Part shown: positions 1 to 18,104 of the stretch, one piece after another | How positions within the stretch are numbered: the first letter of the stretch is position 1 | How the letters are laid out: the number at the start of each line of letters is the position of its first letter | NCBI GenBank assembly: GCA_965205655.1 | Contig: CBDBIJ010000034.1 | Span: 1-48,145, forward strand | From: Candidatus Latescibacterota bacterium | GTDB taxonomy: Bacteria > Latescibacterota > UBA2968 > UBA8231 | DNA length: 48,145 nt | Direction: 5' to 3' | Notes under the pieces: generated by a model | Database searches by the model: none | Told to the model about the DNA's origin: nothing | The model's input: only the letters and a program-made list of their open reading frames with translations | Program-made: the position numbers and the translations under genes

Positions 1-55
1 GGACATTTTCCTGCAACTTCGTCACATGTGCGCTCAGATCCTGCGTATCTTCCAT
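1..55 (-). CDS. 5' end of an unknown CDS running off the left edge (MEDTQDLSAHVTKLQENV...)
   Basis: Minus-strand ATG at 55 preceded by a strong RBS (GGAAGGAGGT); frame open to the window edge. Confidence 0.55.
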   Translation of the reverse strand, partial: MEDTQDLSAHVTKLQENV

Positions 56-199
56 CTGGGACCTCCTTCCGGGTTTGGGCGTAAGTGCATACACCCAAAG
101 TACCTTCGTGCCCGGAATTGGGGTCCCTCTTTTTGTGCAATTCTGCGTAAATCAGAACCTCCACCCATAACATACTGTGATGAAAAGCATATTACTTCG

Positions 200-482
200 A
201 TGAGCTGGACGGGTCGAGATCGCCGAGGAGTTCGCGCCCGAGTTCTACGCTCTGCATGAGGAGGTGCAGCACGCGATCCTGGCCATGTCCCGCCTGTTGC
301 AACAGTTCGGTCCGTACTTGGGACGGCCCCGAGCGGGCACGCTGAACGGCTCGCGCCACGCGAGCATGAAGGAGATGTGTTTCACCGCAGCCGATGGAGA
401 ACGGCGGCTCGCCTTCGACCCCAGGCGTAGCGCCATACTTCACGTCGCAGGCGACAAGTCGGGCGGTAGCTCCAGGAGGTAA
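200..482 (+). pseudogene. RelE/ParE-superfamily (Gp49/DUF891-like) TA toxin, frameshifted and C-terminally truncated
   Basis: ATG200 MSWT, then frameshift into VEIAEEFAPEFYALHEEVQHAILAMSRLLQQFGPYLGRP..TLNGSRHASMKE..AFDPRRSAILHVAGDKSGGS; stops before the usual C-terminal helix; no antitoxin follows. Confidence 0.75.
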
Positions 483-520
483 TTGAGGACATATGGGAAA
501 GCGCTGACAAAGAAAAGACT

Positions 521-724
521 ATGGACTTCCACATGTCCGGCTCGTGTCACTACCGTCTAGCAGACGAAGAGTTCTGCGACTTAACACCTTCGAACGTGAC
601 GCTATTGACCCAACAGCCTGACGGCTCGGTCCGCGCCGTGAAAGGCTCTTATGTGAGGATAAGTGCACACATGCACGCGGGCGCACCGCCTATCCAACCG
701 GAGCCCGCGGAGTTAGAGACATAG
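521..724 (+). CDS. Hypothetical protein, possibly a C-terminal fragment (frame open upstream: ..EVIEDIWESADKEKT-MDFH..)
   Basis: 67-aa ORF, no recognisable motif. Confidence 0.35.
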   Translation: MDFHMSGSCHYRLADEEFCDLTPSNVTLLTQQPDGSVRAVKGSYVRISAHMHAGAPPIQPEPAELET

Positions 725-901
725 CCAACCCGAACTCCGAATCGAGTGGGACAGACGAAGGGGTGAATGGTTTCGGGCGTCGAATCTGGAGGATCGGTGC
801 GGGCTGACGGATAGAGCCGCAAGCACGGGCCCTGCGCCGCATAGAGGTACGGTGCGTGGCTCCCTAGGCAGCGTGAAAGTCTGCGTACGGGCTCGTGTGA
901 G

Positions 902-931
902 CTGACACTCCACAGCTTGTTTCGGTATATT
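902..931 (+). promoter_or_regulatory. Candidate sigma70 promoter for the PRTase/DprA/HAD operon
   Basis: CTGACA-N18-TATATT about 80 bp upstream of the first ORF. Confidence 0.35.
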
Positions 932-1011
932 GGGACTCCTCAAGCGGGTTGCGCTGGCCCCAAGAGCTGGCCCAGTAGTAGTGCAACTATTCGCGCCTAT
1001 ACAGGCGAGGA

Positions 1012-2012
1012 GTGAGAGATGGACGGATTTTCGTCACTGTGCACACTCCCATGACTCCGGGCACAGCGGACCCATGGGGCCCACTGCGCGATATCCGTCT
1101 CGGCCGGGCAAAGGACAGCCTCGAGTCAGGGAATCCCGCTGAAGCGATCGAGTGGCTTGAGCGTGCGCCCCGGACGCCCGAGAGGCGAGCAGTTGAAGCC
1201 GAGGCGCGGTACCGGCTTGCCAGCGAGCTGATCATGAAGCGTCGCTTCGCAGACGCGGAGACCGAACTGAGACAAATCCCGTACGACTCGTCCATCAATC
1301 GTTGTCTCACCGAGGAGCGAGTCCGCCTTCTGAGAATCCGCGGAGAGACGACCTCCGACCTTCGAGAGATGGCCGGGGGGGGGATCTCTACGCAATCGCA
1401 ACGTGCCCTCACCAGGCGTCCGGAGTGCCGCCTGCACGGGCATTGCCGCCAACCGGCTTTGCCCCTCTTATCGAAGGAGCCTATGCGGCTGCGTCCTACC
1501 GCTCCCGCTGGGATCAGCAATGGGCCGATCCCATGAGTCAGCTCCTTCGTTTAGAGAAGAAGGCACTCGAACGACCTGCGGTCCGGTTCCTAGGGCTTCT
1601 GCTGGCCTCGTACGTGTGCCATCATACACCGCTTGTCGGAGCCATAGATGCTCTCGTGCCTATCCCGACATCCCGTTCACGCGCGGAGGCGCGGGGAGGA
1701 TGCATCCCTCAGGAGCTAGCGGAGGCAATTCAGGACGAGTTGGCGATTCCCATCAGGGAAGCGATCAAGACGAGCGGTGATTACGAGGGCCACCAACAGG
1801 TGCAAGGGAGGGCGCGGGAGCAAGCGCTCCGATGTGCCTGGGTCGTCAAAGAGGACCCCGTGCTTCAGGGTCGCAGAGTGGCGGTCGTCGATGACATCAT
1901 CACCACAGGGACCACGATGAAGGCGGCAGCAACCATGCTCCTCGAGAAGGGCGTCGGAGGTGTCTTCGCACTCGGTCTGTTCCACACCGAGTCGAGCCGT
2001 AGCGCTACGTGA
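1012..2012 (+). CDS. TPR-like N-terminus plus ComF-type phosphoribosyltransferase, split by a frameshift in a G9 tract (1375-1383)
   Basis: Frame 1012 gives helical TPR-like repeats (AKDSLESGNPAEAIEWLERA..EARYRLASELIMKRRFADAETELRQI); frame 1302 gives LVPIPTSRSRAEARG and the PRPP motif VAVVDDIITTGTT; G7 or G10 would join them. Confidence 0.75.
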
Positions 2013-2028
2013 CCTCCACCCGATCCGG

Positions 2029-3006
2029 ATGCGCGAGCTCATGCGACAGTTAGACAACGACATGTCGACAAGCGGCCTGAGCGTCCGGGAACTCGAGAGC
2101 ATCTATGCGTTGGACTCGATCAAGCAGTTCGGTCCTCAGAAGTTCAAGCAACTGCATGAAGCGGGGCTGGATCCCGCTCAGGTCTTGGACGATCACACTC
2201 TCCTCCCCATAGAGGGGAAGAGGGGCGAGCAATTCCGCGGAGAGATCGCCGAGATGACAGGTGACGCGCGTGGCAACGCGCGGGCGAGGGCGGAACGTCA
2301 GCTCGAGCGAGCCAGGGAGCTACGGGCGACCATCCTGACGTACCGGCACCCCTGCTACCCGGCCAATGTGTTCCATAGCAACAACCCCGTGCCGGTGCTC
2401 TATGCACGGGGAAACTGTGAGGTCCTTAAGTCTGAGTCTGTCGTTGCATGCGTCGGGTCGCGCAGGATTCGGCCACCTTATTCCCGAGTGCATGAAGTCC
2501 TTGCCTCCGGGGCTGCGAGGGCGGGTTTTGCGATCGGGTCGGGATTCGCCCTCGGGGCGGACACGATCGGTCATCGGGCCGCGTTCGAATCAGGGGGACG
2601 TACGATCTGCGTCCTTCCGGGGGGCGTGGATCGACCGTTTCCACCCGAGAACGACAACCTGTGGAACCAGCTCTTGGAATACCCGGGTGCCGTGATGATG
2701 AGTGAGTTCGCGTTCGGCACCGGAGCGTCCAAGCTGACGCTTCGGAAGCGGAACAAGCTCATCGTTGCCTGCGCAAGAGCGATTTTCGTCAGTCAATCCG
2801 CGCTGAACGGCGGAGCGATGAACGCGTATCGTTTTGCCCGGGAACAAAAGAAGCTTGTCGCTACGTGCGAGACGGACTGTAGGGAAGACACTTCGGGGAA
2901 CGCCAAGATCGGGGAGGAGCTCCGGCAGGACGATGCCTTGTTCACAGCAGATACATCGGGACAGGAGTTCGTGGATTGGCTGCAAGGGTCATACTCCTTG
3001 ATCTAG
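2029..3006 (+). CDS. dprA: DprA/SMF (SLOG) family protein, short form without C-terminal winged helix (ShosA-like)
   Basis: Motifs VACVGSR, SGFALGADTIGH, TICVLPGG, RNKLI, GGAMNAYRFA; N-terminal SAM-like IKQFGPQKF; start uncertain (2029/2041/2062). Confidence 0.9.
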   Translation: MRELMRQLDNDMSTSGLSVRELESIYALDSIKQFGPQKFKQLHEAGLDPAQVLDDHTLLPIEGKRGEQFRGEIAEMTGDARGNARARAERQLERARELRATILTYRHPCYPANVFHSNNPVPVLYARGNCEVLKSESVVACVGSRRIRPPYSRVHEVLASGAARAGFAIGSGFALGADTIGHRAAFESGGRTICVLPGGVDRPFPPENDNLWNQLLEYPGAVMMSEFAFGTGASKLTLRKRNKLIVACARAIFVSQSALNGGAMNAYRFAREQKKLVATCETDCREDTSGNAKIGEELRQDDALFTADTSGQEFVDWLQGSYSLI

Positions 3007-3569
3007 ATGGTACGGTCTGGGACAGCTATCCCTGGTACAGCCGGGTGCTGGAGCGTACTGGACTCATCCGGGCAGAGGAGGCGGAGAGCGCGTTGAGGCA
3101 GGGGCGCCCGATCATCCGCCTCGGGAAGGATCTGGGCGTGTCCCGCAGTCGCCTGATCCGCATGATCCAGGACACCTCCGAGCCGATACCCATCTATCCC
3201 GGGGTCGAGGCAAGCCTCGCTCGGCTTTCCGCGAGGAGAACCACGCTCGGCATCGTTACTAGTTTGTCCGGTGCCATTGCACTTCCGATGCTGGCCAAGG
3301 CCAGCATCGACAGCTTCTTCCAGACCATTGTGCATCCGGGCGTCTGTCGCACCTATAAACCCGACGCGCGTCCTATCCTCGTTGAGCTGGAAGCATTGGC
3401 CGAAGCCGCCTCGTCCTCGGTCGTCTACGTCGGTGACCGGGAGGAAGATGCTGCTGCTGCCCGGAACGCAGGGATCCGGTTCGCGTGGGCGTCCTTTGGT
3501 TATGGTACTAGAACGCCATCACTCGAGGAGACTGTACTGGCAAGGTTTGGTGAGATTGTCGAGCTATGA
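2976..3569 (+). CDS. HAD-superfamily hydrolase (phosphatase)
   Basis: Motif I DLDGT, II VTS, III KPD, IV VGDREED; overlaps the dprA end. Confidence 0.92.
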   Translation: MAARVILLDLDGTVWDSYPWYSRVLERTGLIRAEEAESALRQGRPIIRLGKDLGVSRSRLIRMIQDTSEPIPIYPGVEASLARLSARRTTLGIVTSLSGAIALPMLAKASIDSFFQTIVHPGVCRTYKPDARPILVELEALAEAASSSVVYVGDREEDAAAARNAGIRFAWASFGYGTRTPSLEETVLARFGEIVEL

Positions 3570-4690
3570 GGTACCTGTACAAGATCTGGAGTGGGTACGA
3601 CGGTTTCACTCCTACACAGATCCCGAACCGCAAGGATAGTGACGGCCGTCTCAAACTCGGTTGGCGGCGGTACCTGGATGTTGTAGAACCCGAAGACGAG
3701 GTCTGGGTCTACTTCCATGGCCGTGACGCCTTTGAGGATGGCGTCTATCTGAAAGGCATCCTTGATGATATCAACGTCAGTGATAGACGCGCTTTTCTCG
3801 TCATCACCGAAGAGTCGACGGAGCAGCCGCTCACCGCTGCAGTGACATCAAGGCGCGTCGCCGCTACAGTATCCCAAAGATATAGGCAGATATTTCTCTA
3901 CCCTCAGGCTTGGGGAGACGACGAAACGTGCACTGCACTCAGTACCGGGTCCACCTGTGCGGAGAAACACTGCGAACTGTGTGACATCTGGATGGACCTA
4001 CCGATAGTTCGACGACAGGAGCAGAGGCGGCCCAGTCGGCTTTCACCGAACGTGATCGAGTTCGTGCCAGGGTACTGGGTCATTCCGAGTAGGTGTTTCC
4101 TCTACTCCGAGACCCACCCCATCCTATCTGAAGTAAAACGGTCTACCGAGCTCTTCTATACGTTCAAGCTTGGGGCCGAAAAGCTCGCTTATCCGCTCGG
4201 CCTAGGTGTCTACGAAGCACTGAGGAACCGTGGCCTGACCGCTTTTGATGCGATCGTGCCAATACCGCTTTCACCCGACAAGGCGCACTCAGGCGAACTG
4301 CATCGCACTCGTGCACTGGCCCGCCAGCTCTCACAATTCTTAGGGGTTCCAGTCCGAGAGATGCTCTCGTTGACACAGCCGATATCCAAGGGTAGGGCGA
4401 GACAGGCCGGGTGGGGGATCGCACAGTTCGAGGGAAGTTACCGCGAAGCCATGCGTGTTGACGCGTCAGCAGCCTTACCTGCAAGTATCCTTCTCGTCGA
4501 TGATGTAATAACTAGAGGAAGTACGCTAACTATGGCGGCCGAAGCTATAAGGGATTGCAATCCGGACGTGGAAATCAAGGCTGCATTGGCGGGCCAGATG
4601 ATTCTTCGGGAGTCGGTGGCTGACGCGTCCCGATTTCTGCGCTGCAGTAATGCTCACAGCGGTCCTTGCCGTTTTCCTGCGCCAGGATGA
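3566..4690 (+). CDS. ComF-type phosphoribosyltransferase with an N-terminal EVE/PUA-like domain and a Cys4 linker
   Basis: IVPIPLSP and [14 protein letters not shown]-x8-C-x4-C-x2-C; ATGA overlap with the HAD stop. Confidence 0.82.
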
Positions 4691-4767
4691 GCTCCTGCGC
4701 GGACGGCAGCAGACCCAGGCGTTCCTGAGGCGCACCGGTAGTCCACTTGGACAGAGAGGGAGGCTAA

Positions 4768-5208
4768 GCCTATGCCGACGCTTGCCTCAAGGCGGGCATC
4801 TCAAAAAGCACATTCCAACTGCGGAAACAGAAGGGAAAGGAGCAGAAAAAGGGGAGGTTTTCGGAGTTTTGGGACGAACTAAAAGAGGCCGAGGCAGGAT
4901 TTCGGGCTACCCGTCTTCAACGGCTCGTAGATGCTGCGGAAAAATCAAAAGTTCGGGTTCGCAAAACAGTACGGAGCATCGGGGAGGGCGATGATGCCAA
5001 GATATTCCAGGAGGTCGTCGAGGATACCGTGCTGCCCGATCCCAAGTGGGACGCCTGGCTGCTGGAACGCAAGTATCCCGAGCAATACAGCCGTAAGCAC
5101 TTGGAGATTAACGCGAACACCGAACCGCCCCCCGTTATGCAGCTGGTAATCGTCGATCCGGTCAAAAAAAGGGAGACGGATGCCAACAGGGATCCGCGCT
5201 TGCCATAG
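4768..5208 (+). pseudogene. Phage terminase-small-subunit-like HTH protein, 5'-truncated or disrupted (not in ORF track)
   Basis: Frame +1: AYADACLKAGISKSTFQLRKQKG..FSEFWDELKEAEA..KWDAWLLERKYPEQYSRKHLEINANTEPPPVMQLVIVDPVKKRETDANRDPRLP*; in-frame TAA at 4765. Confidence 0.65.
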
Positions 5209-5300
5209 CGCCAGGATCCGCCGGCCTCGATTGCGGGGGGATCGCCGAGCAGGTGGCGCGCGATCACCGGCAATAGATCGCTCCAGGCATCGCCGTTCAC
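5187..5300 (-). pseudogene. N-terminal stub of a phage/plasmid primase-like protein
   Basis: GTG at 5300 (GTGA overlap with the upstream stop), MNGDAWSDLLPVIARHLLGDPPAIEAGGSWRYGKRGSL; resembles the ARHLLG..R(Y/F)G..GSL primase N-terminus, then runs into antisense of the TerS-like remnant. Confidence 0.5.
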
Positions 5301-7171
5301 GCGGGCAGCCTTTCCCGCAGCAGCCAGCACCAGGCAACGCACCGCGCCGCGTCGCCCAACCAGGGGGCCGGCAGCCGTCCGGGCAGTCGCGGGCGCACCG
5401 GTTCGGGTGCCGGCGGTCGCAGCCGCGACCAAGCAGCCGCGCCGCCTTCGCCGGGCCTCGCAATGGTGCAGCGCACGAGCGGCAGGCTGTCGAGTTCCGG
5501 TCGGGGCCAAATCTCGAAGGCCAGCAGCTTGCCGGTCTCGCTGGCGGTCAGCCGGTATCCGTCGACCAGGGGCGCCAGCCGGCGAAGAATCAAAGGGGCG
5601 ACCTCGACCAGGGGCGACGTTCTGATGTCGCCGGTCGACAAGGTGACGTGTAACAGCTCGGTCGATTTTCGTCTCGAGGCGCCGTTCACGTCGGGCAGGC
5701 TTTGCCGCACAAAGCAGCAGGGCAGCCAAAGGCCGGCGGGGCCGTGCTCGATGGCGGCCTTTGTTCTGTGATTTCCGTCGACCACCAGCACCGGGCCGGT
5801 TCCGGGGGCGGGCAGTCCCTCGACTACCAGGGCCGGCCACTCGTCAAAGCGGCCGGCCTTCGCTTCTTTGACGCGACGGCGCAAAACGTCCGGGTCGCAC
5901 CCGTGCCGGCGAGCTTCCAGCCGAAGGCGCGCCACCGACACTCGTACCAACGGGAAGCTCGACGCGATCTTGTCGAGCAGCTCGCACCATTGCTCCACGG
6001 TCGCACCGGTCCGGCTCCAGGTGCGGTATCGGGCGCGCAACCGCGCCACCTCGCCGGGGGGGGCAGTCACTATGGCGAAGGCCGCACCGCCGACACTCGC
6101 GGCAGGTGTGCGGGCCGCGTTGCCATAGGGTTTCTCACGAATGCAGGCCGGTTTCCGGGTCCCTCCTGCCTCCGGCTCCGGCATTTTGTCGTGGGCGTGT
6201 TGTGGACACCAGACCGGCGACCAACCGTAGCCGCGGGGGTGTCCGTCGGGTTCCGGGCAGTCTGAACAAGGGAGGCCTTTCCAGGGTTCAGGGTTTTCCA
6301 CGGACGTTAAAACTGCCTTCAGGCCGTCGCGGTCCACTTTCTCACCGAGCAGCCCCAACCATTCCCGCTCGGATTGTTCCGCAATGCGCACCGCGTGCAA
6401 GGCGCCGGCCGGCAAGTAGCTTTCCACCGCCTCGCGTACGAGACGACGCATTTCCCCGGCCGGCATCGCCTCCGCCTCGACGGTTTGCTCGATGTCGAGA
6501 CGGCGCTGATCCCCGGCCTTGCGGGGTTTCTGCGGCAAGTCGAACTCGGCGATCTGTTCGGGGTTGATTGCAAGGCGCCGCAGCTCGAGCGGGGTTTCCA
6601 GGTGGCGCCGTAGCTCCGCCTCGACGTGCCGGTCGATCAGCACGCCGGCAGGGTCGAAGTCGCCCAGGAACAGCACCACGGCGCGCGCGCGGCCGGCCGC
6701 GTCGATTTCCTGCGCCGCCTCGTAACACAAGGTGGCGCTCGAAAATCCGCCGCAGGGGTAGAGGCTCACCGCCAATTCTCTGCACGTCGTCTGCAGCACT
6801 CCGGCCAGGCTCCGGGATTCGGTCCACACTTCGACGCGGGGCAGGTCCGGTCCCCACAGTTGCCCGCGATACCAGCCGGCGACACCCTGCAGAAAATCGC
6901 CGGGGCTATCCCAAGCCGGGACGTGAAAACCGCGCCGCGTCGCGTCGCTTATCCAGCCGTACGGGATACGGCCGGACCTCCGCAGCCCCAGGCAGCGCCG
7001 GATAATCAGCTTGTATCCGTGCTCCGTTTTGTCCACCGGCTCCGCAAGGCGGGGGTCCGTCATCCGGTAAAACAGATGACGGACGGATTGCGGGCGGTCC
7101 GCGCGCAGGACCTCGATCAGTTGCTCGTCGAGGGTGTCGAGTTGCTCCCGGGTGCGCCGGCGCCGGTTCAC
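5297..7171 (-). CDS. Multidomain protein: HTH + TopoVI-A/Spo11-like TOPRIM, Cys/His knuckle, ParB/Srx-like domain and unknown C-terminal module (possibly fused genes)
   Basis: SVRHLFYR, VEVWTESRSL, FLGDFDPAG, VEAEAM; CSDC..CPQH; VVDGNHR; GTG at 7171 overlaps the RHH stop (GTGA). Confidence 0.75.
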   Translation of the reverse strand: MNRRRRTREQLDTLDEQLIEVLRADRPQSVRHLFYRMTDPRLAEPVDKTEHGYKLIIRRCLGLRRSGRIPYGWISDATRRGFHVPAWDSPGDFLQGVAGWYRGQLWGPDLPRVEVWTESRSLAGVLQTTCRELAVSLYPCGGFSSATLCYEAAQEIDAAGRARAVVLFLGDFDPAGVLIDRHVEAELRRHLETPLELRRLAINPEQIAEFDLPQKPRKAGDQRRLDIEQTVEAEAMPAGEMRRLVREAVESYLPAGALHAVRIAEQSEREWLGLLGEKVDRDGLKAVLTSVENPEPWKGLPCSDCPEPDGHPRGYGWSPVWCPQHAHDKMPEPEAGGTRKPACIREKPYGNAARTPAASVGGAAFAIVTAPPGEVARLRARYRTWSRTGATVEQWCELLDKIASSFPLVRVSVARLRLEARRHGCDPDVLRRRVKEAKAGRFDEWPALVVEGLPAPGTGPVLVVDGNHRTKAAIEHGPAGLWLPCCFVRQSLPDVNGASRRKSTELLHVTLSTGDIRTSPLVEVAPLILRRLAPLVDGYRLTASETGKLLAFEIWPRPELDSLPLVRCTIARPGEGGAAAWSRLRPPAPEPVRPRLPGRLPAPWLGDAARCVAWCWLLRERLPA

Positions 7172-7395
7172 TGTGCGCCGCCCTTTTGTCCGTTGCGCCG
7201 CCTCGACGGCCGCAAGCGGGCGCGTACGGCGCCGATGCCGGCCTCGATGCAATCGCGCGCCACCTCGGCAACGCAGGTGTCGGCCTTGTCGGCCAGCGCT
7301 TCCAACGCCGCCCGGAGCTCGTTCGTTATGCCAAAGTTTATTCTGGCCGGATAGTGGGCACGCCGCCGGTACTGTCGCTCTGTCCGCCCTGTCAT
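7168..7395 (-). CDS. Ribbon-helix-helix (CopG-like) DNA-binding protein
   Basis: RINFGIT strand followed by two helices (NELRAALEALAD..VAEVARDCIEAG); GGAGAG RBS. Confidence 0.72.
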   Translation of the reverse strand: MTGRTERQYRRRAHYPARINFGITNELRAALEALADKADTCVAEVARDCIEAGIGAVRARLRPSRRRNGQKGGAQ

Positions 7396-7418
7396 GGGGG
7401 TTTCTCTCCGGGTTTATA

Positions 7419-7476
7419 GTGTGACCTGGTGTGACCTGGCGTCACTGAAAATACGCCGAACTCAATACCACGTCAA
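7419..7476 (-). promoter_or_regulatory. Sigma70 promoter for the RHH operon with downstream 10-bp tandem repeats (candidate operator)
   Basis: Minus-strand TTGACG(7476-7471)-N17-TATTTT(7453-7448); GTGTGACCTG x2 at 7419-7438 plus a partial third copy. Confidence 0.5.
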
Positions 7477-7518
7477 CTGCGCCATCATAAAGCCGCGACA
7501 ATGCCCTATCAGGCGCTA

Positions 7519-7547
7519 TTGCCAGGGCCGAAATAACTGCGTATAAT
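7519..7547 (+). promoter_or_regulatory. Sigma70 promoter facing the Cre-like gene, overlapping the lox-like site
   Basis: TTGCCA-N17-TATAAT. Confidence 0.6.
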
Positions 7548-7566
7548 TGCAGTTATCGGAAGTTAT
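7533..7566. other. loxP-like recombination site (13-8-13)
   Basis: ATAACTGCGTATA-ATTGCAGT-TATCGGAAGTTAT versus loxP ATAACTTCGTATA-ATGTATGC-TATACGAAGTTAT: 23 of 26 arm positions identical; next to a Cre-like remnant. Confidence 0.85.
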
Positions 7567-7602
7567 TCGTACCCTCTTACCCGGATTCCGCCGCATCGCA
7601 CC

Positions 7603-7984
7603 GTGAAAGCAACAGACGCCGCCGGGCTCTCGCCGGCCGGATGGCGGTCGCGGCCTCCCGCTCGCTCGTACAGGTCGCGGCCGCGCCGCTCGCCGGTCGG
7701 GCCGGCAACGGACCGGGTGCTGGCCGGCCTTCGACGGGAAGGCAAGGGCCGGGGCCGGGGCCAGGTCGACGGGGTGCGCTTCAGCGAAGTCGACACCGCG
7801 GCCGTGTTGCGCGCTCGCCGCAAACGACAGCGGGTCCGTCGCCGGCCTCCGCGACGCCGCCTTGCTGGCGGTGGCAAGCGATGGGCTGTTGAGGGTGCAG
7901 TCACCGGCGATGCCGGGCCACTATGCACGGGGCCAGTTGGCAGCACGGGGCGCCGTCGCTCGCGTCCGCTACGGTCGCGGATAA
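7603..7984 (+). pseudogene. Cre-like tyrosine recombinase remnant (frameshifted, large internal deletions)
   Basis: SPVGPATDRVLAGLRREGKGRGRGQV, then in another frame AGLRDAALLAVASDGLLRV (box I Arg; Cre RNLAFLGIAYNTLLRI) joined directly to QSPAMPGHYARGQLAARGAVARVRYG* (catalytic Tyr region; Cre NIVMNYIRNLDSETGAMVRLL). Confidence 0.8.
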
Positions 7985-7986
7985 AG

Positions 7987-8015
7987 CCTCATCGGGGGCG
8001 GGGGCCGATGCGAGG
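7987..8015. terminator. Imperfect hairpin between the convergent cre-like and terS genes
   Basis: CCTCATCGG..CCGATGCGAGG; no clear U-tract. Confidence 0.3.
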
Positions 8016-8043
8016 GTCGAAGGCGCAGCGCCTGGGCCTCGAA

Positions 8044-8484
8044 TCATTCCGCGGCAAGCTCCGGTTTCCCTCCGTCGCTGGCGTCACTGCCGGCAGGGTG
8101 CGTCGGGTCAAAGCCGGGCTCGAGGGCGTCGACGATTACCAGCCGCATCGGGGGTGGGGGTGTCGACGTTACCGTGAGCTTCTCACTCCACATTCCAAGG
8201 TGCTTTCCCAGCAGCTCGGCGGATCGGACGCGCGCCGCCATCGGTGCGTCGTCCGCCTCCAAGGCGCCCCGCAGGAAATCGAGAACGAAATCCGCGTCGA
8301 GCTCCGCCCGTTTCGCGCGCGCCTGGATGGCCTCAGTTAGGGCCGCTTGAATCCCAACATTTCCCAACAGGCGGGGGCCGCTGCGGTCCGCAGTCCGGGG
8401 GCTGTATCCGGCCCGCTTGGCCGCGGCCGTCGCGTTGAAGTCGATCAAGTATTCCCGGATAAAAGCCTGTTGCTTAGCAGTCAT
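8044..8484 (-). CDS. terS: Terminase small subunit (Terminase_2/SaPI-type)
   Basis: MTAKQQAFIREYLIDFNATAAAKRAGYSPRTA..LL..ELLGKHLGMW; GGAG RBS. Confidence 0.92.
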   Translation of the reverse strand: MTAKQQAFIREYLIDFNATAAAKRAGYSPRTADRSGPRLLGNVGIQAALTEAIQARAKRAELDADFVLDFLRGALEADDAPMAARVRSAELLGKHLGMWSEKLTVTSTPPPPMRLVIVDALEPGFDPTHPAGSDASDGGKPELAAE

Positions 8485-8626
8485 TTCCAGTTCTCCCGTG
8501 TTGTGTGCGGTCCGCGGAAACCTTCGCCGGGGGGGGCCGGGCAAAGGGTCCGCTCCGCAGGTTTCAGAGGGTGGAAATCGGCCCGCGCGGAACCGCTCGA
8601 ACAGCTTGCCGGCGAAGGAAAACGGT

Positions 8627-9439
8627 CACGTCGCGCCGCCTTTTTTTCGCAGGCAACCGGGAAACGTTCCTGTTCCCGGGTGCCTGTAGAACAGGAAGCG
8701 GCTGTCCAGGTTGCGCGGGTGGGGTTGCCGCTAGGTGCGCACCGGCAACCATAGGCCGTCCCTGTTCGGCAGCTCCACCTTTGCCAGGTTCACCGCGTCG
8801 AGAGCTTGGTACAGGGCGCGCCAATGCTTTGACGGTTTCCAGCTCGACTTGCCGGTGCGCGGGGATTTCGGCCACAAGAGATTGCGGATTTCCTCCAGGG
8901 TCGGTTCCCACGTGTAGCCGCCTCCGGGACACCGTGCGGACATCGGCATCGCCGCCAGGGCATAGAGAAATATCCGCTTGTCGAGACGGGCGCCGCGGCC
9001 TTGCTGCAGCTCGCTGAAACCGGCCGCGTCCGCCAGCAGCAGCGGGGTGACTGGTACGTCCGCATGTTCGGCCGGCAGCAGGTCCAGTTGTACCGTTTCC
9101 GGGGACACTTTTCCGGGTCGGCCGAGATAGGCCAGCTCGAATTGCTCCGGCTCGCGGGTGCGGTCGACGCCAACCTCCAGGGAGCGGTAGGTCGCGCTAC
9201 TAGGGGCGTGTTGCAAGGTCCCGGCCGGCAGGATCGCGTCCGGGTGCGTATCCGCCTCCATGTGTTGCGGGCGCTTCCACCAGGCGCGCACCAAGGGCGC
9301 CAGCGGTCCCCGCACTCCGGTGTTGTTCCTTGGCGGTTTGGGTAGTACACGCTCCCAATAATCTCTTTTTTCCCGTCCTCCCCGACGCTGCAGTGAAATG
9401 CCGAACTACCGTTCCGTCCTTCGAGGTTACTTCGCTCAT
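8627..9439 (-). pseudogene. Hypothetical element protein, frameshifted and with an internal stop; possibly replication-related
   Basis: ATG9439 with GGAG RBS; coherent protein-like core in ORF 8731-9315 (PLAPLVRAW..ILP..GRGARLDKRIF..TLEEIRNLLWP); function not established. Confidence 0.45.
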
Positions 9440-9455
9440 ACAATCTCCTTGATTT

Positions 9456-9480
9456 GGGAATTATATACATAATTGTAAAC
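9456..9480. mobile_element. Possible IS1595-family terminal inverted-repeat end
   Basis: AT-rich GGGAATTATATACATAATT resembling the GG(C/G)AATTATATAC IS1595-type ends as I recall them; no partner end or transposase in the window. Confidence 0.35.
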
Positions 9481-9630
9481 AAGACCCTTTACCGGCCCTG
9501 CTGGCGTTTCTCCGGTTGTCGCTTAGGGTCCGCCGGGCGCGCTCGGGCAATCAGTGCTTGGCTAGCTCCTCCGGGGTACCCTCGAATTTCATCATGCGCT
9601 CAGGCCGGCCACGCTTCTTATGTTGCTTTT

Positions 9631-9870
9631 TCATGTTCTCTCCGATTGGGCTATTCGTTCATTCTGACGCTTGAGAGCGGCCAGCAGATACCGCTGGTCC
9701 CGGTCTCCCTTCGTGCTGTTACAGGCCCCGCACAGCAACTGCAGGTTGTCCAGGTGGTCGGTTCCGCCTTGCGACTGCGGGACAATGTGATCGATAGTCA
9801 GATTGCGGAACGGGAAAGCGATCCTGCAGCCGTTGCACTATCCCTCCTGTCGTCCGAACAGGGTGTGCTT
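9631..9870 (-). pseudogene. HNH endonuclease domain remnant with an in-frame TAG (not in ORF track)
   Basis: KHTLFGRQEG*CNGCRIAFPFRNLTIDHIVPQSQGGTDHLDNLQLLCGACNSTKG. Confidence 0.85.
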
Positions 9871-10194
9871 ACCGAGCCGGGGGGCGATGGAGTTGGCGAA
9901 CACCGCCGGGCGCAAGCGATCCAGGTTGAGGCCCACCGTTCCCGGCGCATCGGTCGCGGCATCGGCCCGTTGCTCAGTCGCCGGTTGCGGCACGTCCCAC
10001 AGTTTCAAGGGGATGCCCTCGCCGATCCCGGCGGCTGCTTGCAGCTCTGCCTCGGGACCATCGACCCGTCGCCGGGCCAGCGCGGCCCGCAGGTACCCCA
10101 TCAGAGAGGCCCGCGAGCGCAGCTCGACCCGCTCCCGCTGTTCGGCGTCCGGCGCAACCTCGCGGGTTTCCCCTTCGGGCTCGGCCACACTCAT
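9871..10194 (-). pseudogene. Phage major capsid protein, N-terminal fragment (HK97-like, satellite type)
   Basis: DAEQRERVELRSRASL..EAELQAAAG..IPL.LW..EQRADAAT.APGTVG.NL..LRPAVFA.SIAPRLG, then an abrupt in-frame join to HNH. Confidence 0.6.
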
Positions 10195-10196
10195 GT

Positions 10197-10613
10197 TCAG
10201 TCCCTCCCTTGGTGGGGTGTTGAAGGCTTGGCGGCCGCCATGAATCGCCGCGCCCGTCGTTCGCCGATACCGAGGTTCGAGAGTAACGGCAGCCAGCAGC
10301 CGTGTCGAGTTGCCCCCTTGGCCGCCAGCAGCGCCCGGCCGATCTCGCCCGGGTCGCCCTCATATAGGGCGCGATGTAGGCGGTCGATGACCTCCTGCGA
10401 GGGCAGCGGCGACCGCTCCCGCTGCAGGCCGTCAATCATCCGGCTCGCTTCCTCGAAGCCCAACTCGGGAGCATCGGCGATCAGCCATGCAAGGGTTCGT
10501 CTTTGCCTCGGAGTCGCCCTCAATGTATCCTTCAGTCGGTTGGTGAGGTCCGAGCAAGGCGCATCTGGTCCATTATCCCGGCGAGCTCCGTGAAATCGGA
10601 CAAAATCGGACAC
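10197..10613 (-). CDS. DUF3102-domain phage protein
   Basis: EIGRALLAAK..HGCWLPLL..LGIGERRARRFM matches the DUF3102 pattern. Confidence 0.7.
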   Translation of the reverse strand: MSDFVRFHGARRDNGPDAPCSDLTNRLKDTLRATPRQRRTLAWLIADAPELGFEEASRMIDGLQRERSPLPSQEVIDRLHRALYEGDPGEIGRALLAAKGATRHGCWLPLLSNLGIGERRARRFMAAAKPSTPHQGRD

Positions 10614-10934
10614 GCGGAACTCGCCGGGATTTGGACAGAACGCCTTACGCAGTCGGTCGGAGCCGGCCGTCGCTTCGGCGCGCCTTGTGGTTGGCTCTAC
10701 TCTGGGAGCCTTGATGAACCCACAGGGTTGCGAGGCATGTCGGGATCACCCTCCCGCCGTGCCGCGGCCTCGCCACCGCCGTTCAGTTACGCCGCTTTCG
10801 CTGGCGCGAAATCGAACCGGCGGGCTGTCCCGCGTCCTGGTGCGCACGGTATCCGCCTGGTACCAGGAAAAACATCAGCTTGCCCCCAGGCGCCGTCGCG
10901 GCTTTGCGCCGCTATCGCTTCTGAGGCAAACTGG

Positions 10935-10974
10935 AACCCCCGGCCGGTCACACCCGGTCGGGGGTTTTTCTTTT
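10935..10974 (+). terminator. Intrinsic terminator oriented antisense to the alpA operon
   Basis: AACCCCCGGCCGG-6nt-CCGGTCGGGGGTT followed by TTTCTTTT. Confidence 0.65.
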
Positions 10975-11165
10975 CAGGAGTTGACGCCAGTCGCGCGCGG
11001 GCGGGAATCGAGAAACTGCTCGATCTCGCTTGAGCGCCACCTGACGGCCCTTGAGGAGATTTTCACCGGCTCCGGAAAAACGCCGGAGCGCATCAAACGG
11101 TAAATTGAAGATCGGGAGAGCGAGGTCCGCGCCTCGACTTCCTCGCGGCGAAGAAAAGCGTCCAT
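10974..11165 (-). CDS. alpA: AlpA-family phage regulator/excisionase
   Basis: FLRREEVEARTSLSRSSIYRLMRSGVFPEPVKISSRAVRW; GGAGG RBS. Confidence 0.95.
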   Translation of the reverse strand: MDAFLRREEVEARTSLSRSSIYRLMRSGVFPEPVKISSRAVRWRSSEIEQFLDSRPRATGVNS

Positions 11166-11238
11166 CAGGAATCCTCCGGGTTCAGTGTTTCCCGAATATA
11201 CCCGGCTATTCCTTGGGGGAATAGGTGAATAAATCAGG

Positions 11239-11733
11239 CTATTTTTTCGGGCGCCGGAAGGGGTGATCCGATTTCACCTTCTTTATTACGGACGAGACGG
11301 TTTCAGAATCCCTGCACACCACGTCCGCAATTTTGTTAATCGCCTGTGCTTGGGTGTAGCCTTGGTTCTGTAGCACTCGGAAGGCGTGGATGATACGAGC
11401 ATTGCGTTCACCTTCGTCAGGTCGTCCTCTTCCCGTACCGGGCGGCTTGCGTCTGCCGCTGGCGACAGCGAGGGCCCACCGCTGCAGCGGGTCAGGGATG
11501 GGCTCGCGGCGTTCTAGCAGGGTGTCGAGAAGTCGGCGCAGACCCTCCCACGCCCAAGGCTTGGAGAACGCCCAGTTCGAGTAGCTACACACCAACAGGG
11601 GGTCCCGAGCGCGATAGTTGGGCAGGTCGGGATCCACCGCGTCGGCCGGGATTTGCTCCCACCAATAGGGCAGGTCGGCAAGTTCCGGGAACTTGTCGTC
11701 CACGTTGAGCAGGAACTCGCGCAGGTCATCCAT
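11239..11733 (-). CDS. Hypothetical protein with possible C-terminal HTH, coupled to the integrase
   Basis: 164-aa ORF overlapping the int stop; GRGRP followed by helices. Confidence 0.7.
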   Translation of the reverse strand: MDDLREFLLNVDDKFPELADLPYWWEQIPADAVDPDLPNYRARDPLLVCSYSNWAFSKPWAWEGLRRLLDTLLERREPIPDPLQRWALAVASGRRKPPGTGRGRPDEGERNARIIHAFRVLQNQGYTQAQAINKIADVVCRDSETVSSVIKKVKSDHPFRRPKK

Positions 11734-12886
11734 CGCCCTGCTCCAGGAAAGCCGCCCACTGGCGCATCAATCCCCGGCGCTTCTCAAGCAGGTCGCTTCG
11801 CGCATAGGCCCGCTCGACTTGTGAGCCCACGGCGTGAGCGAGGCTCAACTCCGCGACGGCGTGCTCCGCGTCCGTCTCCTCGCTCACCCACGTCCTGAAG
11901 GCCGAGCGGAAGCCGTGGACCGTCGTCCGCTCGGCAAGCCCGTTGTCCCTCAGCACCTTGGTCAGGGCCATATCCGACAGCGGCTTCCCTTGCCGCGTCG
12001 GTGACGGGAAGATCAGCCCGCTACCGTCGTCCAGGGCCCGAGCCTGTTCGAGCACGGCCATCGCAGGGTCGCTCAGCGGCTGACGGTGCTCAACCCCGCC
12101 CTTCATCCGGTCGGAGGGGAGGCGCCAGTCCCCGGCCTCGGTGTCGATCTCAGTCCACGTCGCGCCCCGAGCCTCCCCGGACCTCGCCGCGGTGAGCACG
12201 AGGAACCGGAGACACAACTTCGCCGACAGGGACGCCCTCGACCCCTCGACCACCTGGAGCGCCTCGGGGACCTCCGGGTAGGGCAGCGCCCGGAAGTGCT
12301 GCTTGCCGGTCGTCATGGACGGCAGGGCGCCGTCGATGGCCTCGCCGGCCGCGTTGTGCTCGACGAAGCCGTGGGCCTGGCACCACCGCAGCGTGGCCTT
12401 GATCCGCTGGCGCAGCCGACGCGCCCTCTCCGGCCGGGTCGTCCAGATCGGCGACAGGACCCGGAGCACCTGCTCCCGCCCGATCTGGTCCACCGGCAGG
12501 TCGCCGAGGGTGGGGAAGGCGTACTTCTCCAGCGAGCTCCACCAGTTCGCTGTATGTTTCTCGTTGCGCCAGCGCGTCCGATTAACCTCGAACGTGGCCT
12601 CGGCAGCTTCCCGGAAAGTCGGTGCCTTGGCCTTGCGCTTCTCGGCCAGCGGGTCGAGGCCGTCCGCGATGGCTACCCGGTTGGCGAAGGCGCGCTGCCT
12701 GGCCTTGGCGAGAGACACGACAGGCCAGCCGCCCAGCCCAATGTCACGGCGGCGGCCGTCGATGGTGACGCGCTGAATCCAGCTCTTCGAGCCGCCCGGC
12801 GCGACGTACAGGAACAGCGTCCCGCCGTCGCCGTAACGGCCCGGCGCGGCGAGTGCTTTGACTGTGGCAGCGGTGAGTCTTCCCAC
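11726..12886 (-). CDS. P4-like tyrosine integrase
   Basis: Arm-binding N-terminus (GRYGDGGTLFL..GLG.WP.VSLA.AR); catalytic TAARSGE, K, HGFRS, LAH, AY. Confidence 0.97.
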   Translation of the reverse strand: MGRLTAATVKALAAPGRYGDGGTLFLYVAPGGSKSWIQRVTIDGRRRDIGLGGWPVVSLAKARQRAFANRVAIADGLDPLAEKRKAKAPTFREAAEATFEVNRTRWRNEKHTANWWSSLEKYAFPTLGDLPVDQIGREQVLRVLSPIWTTRPERARRLRQRIKATLRWCQAHGFVEHNAAGEAIDGALPSMTTGKQHFRALPYPEVPEALQVVEGSRASLSAKLCLRFLVLTAARSGEARGATWTEIDTEAGDWRLPSDRMKGGVEHRQPLSDPAMAVLEQARALDDGSGLIFPSPTRQGKPLSDMALTKVLRDNGLAERTTVHGFRSAFRTWVSEETDAEHAVAELSLAHAVGSQVERAYARSDLLEKRRGLMRQWAAFLEQGDG

Positions 12887-13061
12887 GATTCTCCTCCGGC
12901 GATTTACCCACGGGTTTTACCACTCGATTCGTGGGAAAGTAGGGGAATCGTCGGGAAGCCGCAAGCCTTAACCCGGAGTCGGGAGACCCGGTTAACTACC
13001 TTAACAGCAAGTTGTTACGAGCCTTTTTGGGAACCTGAGGGAACTTGCGGGAAGGGAAAAA

Positions 13062-13137
13062 TGGTGGAGCAGAGGGGGATCGAACCCCTGACCTCGGGCT
13101 TGCAAAGCCCGCGCTCTCCCAACTGAGCTACTGCCCC
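13062..13137 (-). tRNA. tRNA-Ala(TGC)
   Basis: GGGGCAGTAGCTCAGTTGGGAGAGCGCGGGCTTTGCAAGCCCGAGGTCAGGGGTTCGATCCCCCTCTGCTCCACCA: 76 nt, G3:U70, encoded CCA. Confidence 0.98.
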
Positions 13138-13514: not shown

Positions 13515-14421
13515 ATGGCTGATGCGGTCGTGACCGCCGCTGTGAGAACGACGATTGGAACCTTTGGCGGGGCGTTGAAAGACGTAGAGGCCCATCGCTT
13601 AGGCGGTAGGGTGATCGAGAGTGTCCTGCAGCGATCGGAGGTGAGTCCGGCAGAGGTGGATGAGGTTGTGATGGGATCGATCTATCAGGGCGGAGCCGGT
13701 CCGAATCTGGCTGATAGATACGGCATCTCGCGGGAGGCTCAGGACGACTTCGCCATGCGCAGCCAGGAGCGCTACCGCAGGGCGCAGTCTGCCAGAGCCT
13801 TCGATTCCGAGATCGTGCCGGTAGACGTGCCACAGCGAAAGGGCGATCCGGTCGTCTTCGACGTCGATGAGCACCCCCGCAAGGATGCGAGTCTCGAGAG
13901 GCTGTCGCAGCTCAAGCCGGCCTTCAAGGAAGGTGGCAGCGTCACCGCAGGAAATGCGTCTGGAATCAACGACGGCGGTGCCGCGATGCTGGTGATGTCC
14001 CAGGAGTCGGCCCGCTCGAGGGAGTTGAAGCCGTTAGGCACATCAGAGCCTCAGCGCAGGCCAGTGTGGATCCCAAGATCATGGGGATCGGACCTGCCCC
14101 GGCGATCAGACCTGCCCCGGCGATCAGACGTCTTCTGGAGCGTGCGGGAATGGCGCTGGACGAGATCGATCTCATCGAGCTCAACGAGGCCTTCGCCGCT
14201 CAGAGCATTGCGGTGGGCATAGACCTGGAGTGGGACGAGACTCGGGTAAACGTAAATGGCGGGGCTATCGCCCTCGGGCACCCGGTGGGGGCAAGCGGGG
14301 CGCGCATCGCCGTTACTCTCCTCCATGAGATGGCGCGCCGCCAGTGTCGCTGGGGAATCGCCGCCAGTGTATCGGTGGTGGAATGGGGATCGCGATGCTG
14401 TTCGAGCGACCAGACGGATAG
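13515..14421 (+). pseudogene. Acetyl-CoA acetyltransferase (thiolase) with internal deletion, duplication and frameshifts
   Basis: [53 protein letters not shown]; region carrying the Cys nucleophile missing at about 13706. Confidence 0.9.
14091..14126 (+). repeat. 18-bp tandem duplication within thiolase
   Basis: GACCTGCCCCGGCGATCA x2 (PAPAIR x2). Confidence 0.9.
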
Positions 14422-14465
14422 ACGGCGGGCGATCGGAGATCGCCCGCCGCGCATGGCCGTAGCTG

Positions 14466-14891
14466 TCAAGCCGTTTCGAGCTCCAGCTCTTCTTCCTCCT
14501 CTACCTCCTCCACTATCGCCTCGGACTGTGAATCGGCCGAGCTTCCACTCCGTTCGAGGACTTGCAGGGTGCGGACCTGCACTTCAACCATCGAATGGGG
14601 ATTCTCTTCACTATCTTTCCAGCTAAAGGATCGCAGGCGACCGGACAGGAAGACGGGCGTACCCTTCCGAAGCCGGTCTGCGAGGGATTCGGCAAACTCG
14701 CGCCAGACGACGATGTTGAAGAAGGACGCCTCCGTCTGCCACTGGCCGTCGCGGTCGCGATAGGGCCGATTGACGGCGATTCGCCCGCTCAGCCTCGCCG
14801 TTCCGCCCTCTGTGATTTTGAACTCCGGATCCTGCACCAGCCGCCCGGTGAGGGAAATCTGATTGATGTTCGGCATGCGCAAATCGGACAT
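14466..14891 (-). CDS. ssb: Single-stranded DNA-binding protein
   Basis: [38 protein letters not shown]; acidic tail; GGAGG RBS. Confidence 0.93.
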
Positions 14892-15063: not shown

Positions 15064-16590
15064 TTGCCTCTGACGGACCACACGAAACCGGCCAGCAGGG
15101 GCCAGTTTTTCACGGCCTCCGGTTGTCGCCCAGTTCATGTGGCGAGTGGTTGCCGAATGCGTTGGCGGCAAGCTGAGTGACAGCCGCGTCATTGACCCGT
15201 CGTCGGGAGAGGGGCGTCTTCCTTCACGTGGCGTTGCAAGATGGGCTTGATCCGGGAGGAGCGGGCAGTGGGAAATCGAGCTGGATACTGGGCTGAGGCC
15301 ACGCGGCATGGCCAGGCTCGGCCGCACCGTGGTAGGCGACGCGCTTCTCGGTCAGTTCGCCGGAGTCGACGACGGGGGATTCGATGTCGTGATCGGAAAT
15401 CCGCCTTTCGGACGAATCTCGGACGTGCTGCCCCCCGCGCTCGTCCTTGATCTCGAACGCGTTGGGGGGGACCGCTTCGGCATCTGGAGTGGCGGGGCCA
15501 GAAAGGGTGAGGTGGAGCAGCTGTTCCTCGACAGGGCGCTGCAACTGGTGAGCCCGGGCGGGGTCGTCGCCTTCATCATGCCGGAGGGTTTTCTGGCCAA
15601 CGATAGAGCTCAGGTCGCGCGGCGACTGGGTGTTGGAGCGAGCTGAGGTGCTGGCGATCGCGTCCCTGCCGGAGTCGGCCTTCCGGCGCCCCGGTCTCAA
15701 CGCCACGACCCGACGTCATCGTTCTGCGTCGGCGGAGCGAGGAGCGGCGCCGGGATCAAACCGCCGTGTCGTCATGGTTGGCCGGCGACGCATTCAGAAG
15801 CCGCTTGCCAATCACATGCAGGACCTGAGCGCGCAGGTCCTGCGCCTGTGCAGACATGGAAGCAGGCGGACGGGGCAGGCCTTTCGGCTGGCTCCCGAGC
15901 GGCTCAGCAGCAGGCGTTGGGATGTGTCCTACTGGCGGGGGACGTTGAGCGCTGCTGGATCATCGAGGTTCCAGCATGCTCCCATCGGTGACTTCATCGA
16001 GGCACATCACCTACGGTCCCATCGTCACCGGCCGTCGCCCGGACCACGTCGAAGGCGGGATTCGCGTCATCCGCCAGAATGATTTCACCGACACCGGACT
16101 AAAAGTAGACGACCTTCTTCGGGTCGAAAGCGGATGCGTGTACGACCCGCCTAGGAGTAGAGTGAGGAAGGGGGATCTCCTCCTGCCCCGCTCCGGAGCC
16201 GGATTCGCTGGGGCGCAATCGTCTCGCGGTCTATCTGGATTCCCCCGCCGGCGAATGTGGCCTGCTTTGTAGATCGGATAAGACTGTCGGGCGTGAATCC
16301 GTTTTTCGTCTGGCTCTACCTGCGCAGCGCAACCCGGATGGGCGCAGATTTCGCAGCGTCATCAACGGCGTCGGTACGCCGAACATCAATTTTTCGGAGA
16401 TTCGCGCCCCTTCGCCTGCCGCTCATTCCAGAAGAGGACCAGCAATTTGATGCACAGACGCTACCTCGAGGAGGTCCTGCCAGCCCATCAGCGCAGCGGA
16501 TCGAGCGACTCGGCCAGAGGCCGGGCTGAGGGCCGGTTTCGGGCGATTATCACGGATCTGGAGCGAATTCTGGGATTTGTCAGCGCCTGA
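15064..16590 (+). pseudogene. N6-adenine DNA methyltransferase fused to an HsdS-like specificity domain, multiply frameshifted
   Basis: GQFFT, VIDPSSGEG, VIGNPPFG, FIMPEGFL; then ITYG..KGDLLLPRSG..GVGTPNINFSEI..LPLIP. Confidence 0.8.
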
Positions 16591-16679
16591 GGGGATGGTT
16601 ACCTTTGAGGCAGTTGCTGTGGTCAAGCGCCCAGTTGCTGTGGTCAAGGCCCAGTTTCCAGTTGAAACAAATCACAGGC

Positions 16680-17978
16680 TCGGGTGAGTGTGTCGGCCCA
16701 TCATCGCGAGCTGTTTGATGCCGAGTTCGGCTTGTATGGCTTGCCGGAGCATCGGCAGATGGCGATAGCCCTTGACCCTGCGCAGACGTGGGTTCGATGT
16801 CGAGCAGTGCCGTGGCTACCCAACGGTGACGCTGTGATGAGTTGGTCCAGCGTCGCACGTTTGTGGTGTGAGCTGCTCCAGGAGACTGTTGACGTTCTCG
16901 ATGCAGTTGGTGGTGCGGAAGGAATCCTTGAGCATCGGCGTCAGTCCCAACCGATGGAGTGTGAGGGTCTCTTCCATGCCTTCCTCGAGGCTGTGTAGGG
17001 CGGACTGATTCATCAACTTCAAGCCCGGTTTGAGCGCGTCCAGTGCCGCCTTGGCCGCCTCGTATCTCGGTTTGCCGTAGGCCGCCTCCATCTTGCGACC
17101 CATACCGGGACTGCTCGCTTTTGGACAGATACGACACGACGTTCTGGCGCTTGTGATACTGGCAGCGCTGCACGCAGGCATGTCCTTTGAGCACCGACAT
17201 CACCGCCTTGTAAAGCCCCTTGGCGCCGTCGATGACGACCAACAGTCCCGGCTTCGTACTGCATACCGCGTTCGACCAGATTCGGACAGGAAGCGACGGC
17301 AGACGCGCTCGTTTTCCGTGGCCGCCTGCACGAAGCCAAGAGGAATCTTCTGTCCGTCGAGGGTGACGCCCAGGGGCGATGATGATCTCCTCGTCCGCGA
17401 AGCTCTTGCCGTCGAGGAATAGCGCCACCAGATCATATCCTTCCAGGGATCGCTCCTGGAATTCAGCCAGCTTTCGAGCCGTGCCTTTCACGTAACGACG
17501 GGACACCGATGAGGATGACAGACCAAAGGCCTCGGGTACGGCCTCAGCGCAGGCCTCGTAGTTGCGCGTGGCGATGCCTTTCAGCATCCGCAACAGCAGA
17601 CACTTCGTCCATCTGTCGAGGCGTCTGCAGTGCTTGGTAAACATCCAGCGGGACCTCGGTATGGTTGGCCACGTTGCGCACCCGCGGCACATCTGACGGG
17701 TAGTTTCTGGTCGGCCAGGTACACCGACCCGAGCTGAGACCCCCAGCGGCGTAACGGCTGATCCGACCCCTTGCGCTGATACCGCGGGCCCAGCCAACTC
17801 AACGACCGCTCTTTGCAGCTCCTCCGCGACCGCCTGCAGCCCCAAGGGAATCAGCCATTGGATCGCCTCAATCCGGCCATCCAGGTCCTCTACTTGCTCT
17901 GCAGTCCTCGGGGTGCTACCTTGCCGATGCTCACCGTTTCGTTTGGCGGCCCTTCTTCCGTGCTACCAGCTTGCTCAT
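16680..17978 (-). pseudogene. IS256-family transposase A, frameshifted
   Basis: LFLDGKSF, VVIDGAKGL, VQRCQYHK, FRTTNCIENVN. Confidence 0.9.
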
Positions 17979-17999
17979 TGCAGGCTCCCCATCGTTACC

Positions 18000-18052: not shown

Positions 18053-18104
18053 CTCGTATCAAAACGTAACGGATTGGAGCCTGTGCTGTTTCAACTAAGA
18101 TCGA

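Follow-up and report, generated by a model that had tools for sequence, protein, structure and literature searches.

Remnant of a putative one-site, one-gene Cre/lox cassette in a Latescibacterota island, with intact relatives at a candidate chromosome-terminus slot

A dimer that carries two sister copies of one site is split into monomers when Cre recombines them. The lox site of phage P1 lies ∼420 bp upstream of the recombinase gene, and three separate promoters are found between them. Pairs of this type are numerous; approximately 500 putative Cre-type pairs have been mined, with 8/17 active (Vika/vox, Nigri/nox, Panto/pox and YR1-YR12; PMC10250229), so that a new Cre/lox pair is by itself ordinary. 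The mined pairs combine a 300-400-amino-acid protein with a palindromic 13-8-13 site within 1 kb (PMC10250229). Terminus modules in which the site is immediately upstream of the recombinase gene are represented by XerS/difSL and XerH/difH (PMC1914069, PMC5357621), and autoregulation through a promoter-overlapping site has been speculated for difSL-xerS (PMC1914069). Cre-loxP can replace XerCD-dif in Escherichia coli (Leslie and Sherratt, 1995, cited in PMC2680272); in this engineered dif::loxP arrangement a Cre-type enzyme acts with a single lox site at the terminus. Domestication of a mobile-element recombinase for chromosome dimer resolution has been discussed as contrary to the vertical history of Xer genes (PMC8138268).

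The locus described here is found in a 48,145 bp contig of a Candidatus Latescibacterota bacterium; the window denotes this whole stretch of DNA. A lox-type 13-8-13 site, ATAACTGCGTATA-ATTGCAGT-TATCGGAAGTTAT, is present at positions 7533-7566 (+) and shows 23/26 identity to the loxP arms, whose sequence was confirmed against a P1 record (L245). Nowhere else in the window are the loxP arms matched with three or fewer mismatches, and shuffled sequences gave no such match (0/100). No second site was found in the 4.0-Mb assembly, where the next best matches to the loxP arms are 18/26. The arms are self-complementary at 10/13 positions, and an outer A7532/T7567 pair is present. The first-pass annotation had reported the loxP likeness, the single occurrence in the window, the symmetry extended by one A/T pair and a recombinase relic 36 bp downstream, and all four are borne out. 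Its three arm asymmetries exceed the limit of two set for the mined pairs (PMC10250229). An arm symmetry of 10/13 is common to dozens of GC-rich stretches, and as a bare palindrome the site is unremarkable. Judged by its letters, it is distinguished by likeness to loxP and by position rather than by the palindrome.

A sigma-70-type promoter match, TTGCCA-17-TATAAT (11/12 positions; 7519..7547, +), overlaps the left arm and spacer of the site, such that the -10 box is formed by the end of the left arm and the first two spacer bases. This geometry recurs at three related loci (L038, L040 and L042), with -35 boxes of 5-6/6. Contigs from public sequencing runs differ from the window at 7521-7522, towards TTGACA or TTTACA. 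The promoter likely drives the recombinase gene and is likely repressed by the recombinase, as the placement of the site suggests.

The recombinase relic starts with a GTG at 7603, 36 bp downstream of the site, and ends with a stop at 7982-7984. Its closest intact relative is a 319-amino-acid protein (P0060), of which three pieces are left. The first (7603..7815, +) follows the GTG with scrambled and frameshifted sequence of residues ∼64-136. The second (7811..7896, +; residues 133-160) carries box I with the catalytic Arg equivalent to Cre R173, and the third (7897..7984, +; residues 290-319) the Tyr helix and C-terminus. The last two are joined in frame at 7897, RDAALLAVASDGLLRV to QSPAMPGHYARGQLAARGAVARVRYGRG. 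Catalytic R and Y are kept, and K, H, R and W are gone with the deleted part. The original observation that a Cre-type box I and Tyr helix are retained and the segment between them lost holds, but it had missed the frameshifts and the loss of most of the N-terminus. As assembled, the gene reads as dead and unable to recombine.

A second remnant in the same genome is on contig C119. It shares 108 bp with the window at 100% identity, beginning exactly at the deletion junction, and is cut upstream by insertion sequence (IS) remnants. No intact copy was found in this genome, where the relic and the C119 remnant are the only ones. Elsewhere in the window a thiolase gene (13515-14626) and transposase genes (16580-19461) are frameshifted, which denotes either a noisy assembly or much decay.

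The relic might instead be a product of mis-assembly, whereby near-identical copies were merged in a noisy long-read assembly and the gene is intact in the living strain. Loose ends at 7568, at 7689 and on both sides of 7897 are continued in public runs as an intact gene, and the continuation after the site shows a ribosome-binding motif and a GTG start. There are 46 proteins at least 85% identical to P0060, the exact identity to C119 starts at the junction itself, and frameshifts are found in other window genes (13.5-14.6 and 16.6-19.5 kb). On the other hand, the central junction is in frame and displays a short microhomology, as in real deletions, and truncated members of the cluster are common. 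IS remnants also interrupt the C119 copy, and recombinases of this family therefore do decay in this genome. Mis-assembly is given a lower but appreciable probability. Among the pieces listed from seven public runs, none bridges the junction at 7897, and 7576-7670 is nearly without cover, although such gaps are not taken as evidence. One RNA run (X19) yielded two contigs only, insufficient to show transcription. Mis-called N-termini of two database proteins (P0042 and P0063) read through the site region, which places the site in front of intact members of the 319-amino-acid subfamily.

A DNA search detected relatives in 4/60 related genomes, where the genes are intact and encode 309-324 amino acids. 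With one of the intact proteins (P0001) as query, 2370 homologues were found at E ≤ 1e-20 among 8000 candidates scored. Its best PDB match by sequence is Cre (phmmer E of 2.6e-21, compared with 9e-4 for XerD), and all top Foldseek matches of the predicted fold (model pLDDT 80) are Cre, with a TM score of 0.72. Intact relatives of 309-319 amino acids have the two-domain fold without an arm-binding domain. In a quick 72-row tree, from which rows below an HMM score of 200 were left out except for five, the family falls beside P1 Cre and away from both Xer and the P4-type integrases (SH-aLRT 98), although Cre is a long branch and its exact place is therefore unsure. The six catalytic residues R-K-H-R-W-Y are kept in 11/11 homologues aligned to P1 Cre. 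Sequence, tree and predicted fold thus support the earlier expectation that homologues belong to the Cre group.

The family has in common with P1 Cre/loxP the fold, the six catalytic residues in intact relatives, the 13-8-13 site, the occurrence of one site per replicon upstream of the gene and the logic of dimer resolution. It differs in that protein identity is ∼25%, P0060, P0001 and the G017 protein have N or V in place of Cre R259, and the site is only 10-60 bp from the start codon and holds the -10 box. The carriers also differ, these being islands, solo insertions and the chromosome terminus, not a P1-like phage. With the mined pairs the family shares protein size and site layout; its clade was not found in the one supplementary file of PMC10250229 that was searched.

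Whether the site regularly precedes the gene was assessed with 49 homologues, namely those with an HMM score of at least 290 and at least 300 bp upstream among 103 distinct near-full-length open reading frames; two truncated duplicates were dropped. An upstream lox-type site is significant (p ≤ 0.01 relative to shuffles) in 17/49, a count in which close kin are not independent, and downstream controls gave 0/47. The 17 also include a probable terminator hairpin (L141), two sites ∼440 bp away (L147 and L157) and several close kin. The prediction that intact homologues carry a 13-8-13 site upstream is thus upheld for 17 of them, and the other 32/49 display no significant site. Where a site is present it is single in 19/21 loci, and in L026 each 9.6-kb repeat unit has one. 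None of the 21 loci has the gene enclosed by a pair of inverted sites; the nearest approach is L174, where an incomplete inverted site is found another 265 bp upstream.

Several arrangements within the family are of interest in themselves. Loci L025/L026 (23,101 bp) display a 9,605-bp unit in tandem, probably a small circle, in which one site is accompanied by genes for a Cre-like and an ssb-like protein and by a small divergent gene. Tandem or part-duplicated Cre-like genes, with N-terminal-only copies beside intact ones, are found at L020, L021 and L022. A clade of solo Cre-like genes (L161, L162, L168, L173 and L174) has perfect 13-bp palindromic arms; in several genomes belonging to another family its members adjoin one and the same gene for a large secreted protein, away from the terminus in G048.

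The cassette is found on islands with an integrase and AlpA (L159, L020 and L311), on plasmid-like contigs (L050 and L052) and as solo insertions. Many of the solo copies have unrelated genes as neighbours, and a single genome can hold up to 18 matches, as would also be expected if the site were mainly an operator or an attachment scar and the enzyme integrated its own circle into degenerate chromosomal targets. In the window and at L018, L029, L038, L040 and L042 the site incorporates a -10 box, the mis-called N-terminus of P0063 crosses a site whose spacer is the same but whose right arm differs, and public runs contain further variants of the site. An attachment scar is nevertheless hard to reconcile with the fact that no second site (at least 19/26) flanks the gene in 19/21 loci, and the 8-bp spacer and symmetric arms are kept across proteins only ∼40-60% identical. 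An operator or scar as the principal role is accordingly held to be quite improbable.

The reading preferred here, to which a probability of roughly 60% is assigned, is that the window carries a broken copy of a mobile one-site, one-gene Cre/lox cassette, and that the intact form likely resolves dimers of the circle that carries it. Four recombinase subunits would assemble on a pair of sister sites, cut the strands that flank the 8-bp spacer and split the dimer into monomers. Binding of the recombinase over the -10 box would repress its own promoter. On islands and small circles, the cassette would thereby keep the circular form monomeric.

The island around the site was compared with known satellites. 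Phage-inducible chromosomal islands (PICIs) are defined by a tRNA-linked integrase, AlpA, terS, a primase or replicase and direct att repeats. The window has a tRNA-Ala gene (13062..13137, -), which is the likely integration site, an arm-binding (P4-type) integrase (11726..12886, -; PF13356, PF22022, PF00589) and an AlpA-family regulator (10974..11165, -; PF05930). It also has a terminase small subunit gene (8044..8484, -; PF03592, phrog_51) and a second terS-like open frame (4768..5193, +; phrog_4102). A tRNA-linked arm-binding integrase, AlpA and terS are shared with PICI/P4-like satellites. The differences are the two terS-like genes, the Cre-like relic and the lack of a detected primase/replicase or att repeat. 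Primase, terL and capsid genes had no match among the island open reading frames scanned with Pfam and PHROG; frames at 8.7-10.6 kb showed no primase or replicase match, although frameshifts may hide one, and an Atlas search with the frame at 8734-9315 gave a match below recognition level. Within 1-12950 no more than 10 bp of the tRNA 3′ region recurs, and the far att end may be beyond the contig. An integrase, AlpA and two terS-like genes are thus present, whereas primase, terL and capsid matches and an att repeat are missing, and the element can be termed satellite-like at most.

Next to the site is a small divergent gene of DNA-binding type (7168..7395, -), 40% identical to a gene at L029. 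It had no family match above cut-off in Pfam or PHROG, and is presumably of the ribbon-helix-helix class. The small divergent gene also adjoins the site and recombinase gene at L029 and L048. Triplets of genes related to it are present in another genome (G032:C3:4240158-4240789 and 6045098-6045723). Of a long open frame (5297..7252, -), the first ∼300 residues match a family annotated as topoisomerase (phrog_6247). At L312:5931-8123 (G021), the topoisomerase-like and small divergent genes show 97.5% DNA identity to the island and are accompanied by its second terS-like gene; neither the site nor the recombinase is present there. Genes for two phosphoribosyltransferases, a DprA-like protein and a HAD hydrolase (1302-4690), located at the opposite end of the island, match the ShosT/ShosA and PsyrT/PsyrA defence models.

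The first-pass annotation had proposed a P1-like module tied to terS, which would circularise packaged satellite DNA after infection. In the closest subfamily there is such a neighbourhood. A terS-like tail (7985..8004, -), which repeats 8141-8160, directly follows the recombinase stop in the window and also abuts the C119 remnant. A 126-letter contig of run X1 joins the 3′ end of the recombinase to terS-tail sequence, and joints at 7987-8150 are seen in 3/4 public runs, with short sides and a repeat involved. Homologues also lie on integrase-AlpA islands; intact or broken copies accompany P4-type integrases at L159, L020, L311, L028, L045 and L035, as had been predicted, and the L159 integrase is 75% identical to that of the window. 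Outside the closest subfamily the association breaks down. Among the loci that carry a near-full-length homologue and span 8 kb or more (n = 23), none matched either of the two terS-like proteins of the window. With single-protein queries rather than family profiles, the recombinase (E ≤ 1e-40) is found in 18/168 genomes of the phylum and terS (E ≤ 1e-10) in 5/168, the genome of the window included, and the two co-occur in 0/18 of the Cre-like-positive genomes. In IMG/VR, P0001 had no match, and the family alignment (A1) and P0060 retrieved distant relatives only, the best at 37-38% identity; a left-arm pattern gave 20 matches, all of which lack a fitting right arm and a homologue close by. 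With terL, capsid and primase unmatched among the island frames scanned and with a single site in the window, packaging-linked circularisation is not supported and appears very improbable. Co-occurrence with terS stands for the closest subfamily and, as far as these genomes indicate, is limited to it.

Intact copies are also present in chromosomes at a constant position. The site and gene alone are found between leuS and mutL in three genomes of one genus (G015, G026 and G032) and in one of another (G017); L018 carries the same slot copy. When whole genomes were searched with the site pattern, G026 had two matches and G015, G017 and G032 a single one apiece; controls had none. The slot is 47.8% (G015), 47.3% (G032) and 49.0% (G017) of the chromosome away from dnaA, i.e. 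in all three testable genomes, and the G026 slot is syntenic with these. GC skew turns from positive to negative at the slot in the two genomes sampled in 20-kb blocks (G015 and G017), although it is weak and noisy away from the slot. A KOPS-like motif changes sign there in the same blocks, with a signal that is likewise noisy elsewhere. Terminus position does not extend to all solo copies, since those of G048 and G127 lie 13% and 7% of the chromosome from dnaA. Slot sites are in part poorly symmetric (5/13 in G015 and 7/13 in G026), which counts against a role in resolution.

The usual occupant of the slot in 30 mutL loci is a Xer-like recombinase with a palindromic 11-6-11 site upstream, and this resident gene is present in 60/75 genomes of the family. 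Among the 30 genomes assembled in ten or fewer contigs, 26 have the resident, and the four without it are exactly the four with a Cre-like slot cassette. Five genomes were examined for its position, and in 4/4 testable ones it is 48-54% from dnaA. The resident (L181:279-1226, -, and orthologues) is single-copy and falls below the cut-offs for XerC, XerD, XerS and XerA. The resident gene is likely an undescribed single-recombinase dimer-resolution system. The corresponding region of the genome of the window (G000) is unassembled, as leuS runs off a contig end (C98:1-2824); mutL and the resident were not found there.

The slot copies do not form a single clade. In a 33-row tree of chosen rows, the G017 copy is sister to an island copy of another genome (G167) with 100/100 support, and the copies of the other genus (G015, G026 and G032) form their own clade. 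A single clade of slot copies is rejected at p-AU 4e-14, the test group having been named after the first tree was seen. By this phylogeny, the cassette appears to have been captured at the terminus twice. The dN/dS ratio of the slot gene is 0.10-0.13, compared with 0.12-0.16 for mutL, which indicates that it is under purifying selection, like mutL.

The XerC orthologue beside topA is without its catalytic Tyr in 4/4 genomes with a Cre-like slot and in the genome of the window. In a set of 33 (the best 30 matches and three picked), 9/33 are without the Tyr and 24/33 have kept it. The latter also keep a slot recombinase; a need for the slot is thus not confined to genomes with a dead XerC, a further point against the resolution role of the cassette. 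XerD-like proteins of G015, G032 and G017 are without catalytic Lys/His. XerC orthologues that have lost the catalytic His or Tyr are retained nonetheless in G000, L303, L305, L310, L316, L317, L319, L325 and L331. The genome of the window has XerC/XerD-like loci at C37:20747-21694, C101:17598-18113 and C95:7272-7781, and two of its XerD-like genes have the catalytic Lys changed.

Inverted dif-like 11-6-11 sites flank the slot in G015, G032, G017 and several genomes with the resident, and one side of it in G026; none were found around the window relic or the C119 remnant. Such inverted sites of XerCD type, common around the slot, raise the alternative that a dif module merely carries the cassette along: XerCD-type sites would have moved it into the slot, and chromosome dimers, if resolved at all, would be resolved at the flanking sites. 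In favour of this reading, G010 has the resident module in inverted orientation together with a XerC that retains the Tyr, and XerC- and XerD-like genes are retained. Yet XerC is without its catalytic Tyr in all four Cre-slot genomes, and with a loose pattern 10/29 slot loci have no flanking dif-like site. Purifying selection equal to that on mutL and a one-for-one exchange with the resident that occurred twice are also not what mere cargo would be expected to show. Passive carriage is thus considered improbable. The alternative preferred is a swappable one-gene terminus slot, at which island Cre/lox cassettes took over dimer resolution at least twice where XerC had lost its Tyr; this is given somewhat better than even odds. 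The slot cassette would then resolve chromosome dimers in place of the family-wide Xer-like recombinase.

Such a slot resembles XerS/difSL and XerH/difH as a terminus module with a site directly upstream of the gene. It differs in that the enzyme is of Cre type by tree and fold and not of an Xer subgroup, the site is 13-8-13, and the cassette was seemingly acquired from mobile pools at least twice, displacing an Xer-like resident. With respect to the engineered dif::loxP arrangement, the slot cassette is natural, vertically kept and under apparent purifying selection, in hosts whose XerC is without the catalytic Tyr. No paper on the cassette family or the leuS-mutL slot was found in a search mostly outside the subscription literature.

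The window itself holds only a dead copy, and a further Cre/lox pair would be a small addition to the ∼500 candidates already known (PMC10250229). Of greater interest is the family. Its many intact enzymes with diverging arms are suited to specificity studies and are candidate tools, and a site very near loxP combined with a different helix J in the enzymes is useful for work on specificity. The family also represents a natural test of whether a recombinase from a mobile element can be domesticated for chromosome dimer resolution, as the pool of donors and the resident that was displaced can be set side by side with a dead XerC and two captures independent of each other. If the proposed takeover is correct, these genomes would represent a natural loxP-for-dif experiment, and integrase-AlpA islands such as that of the window would be the donor pool.
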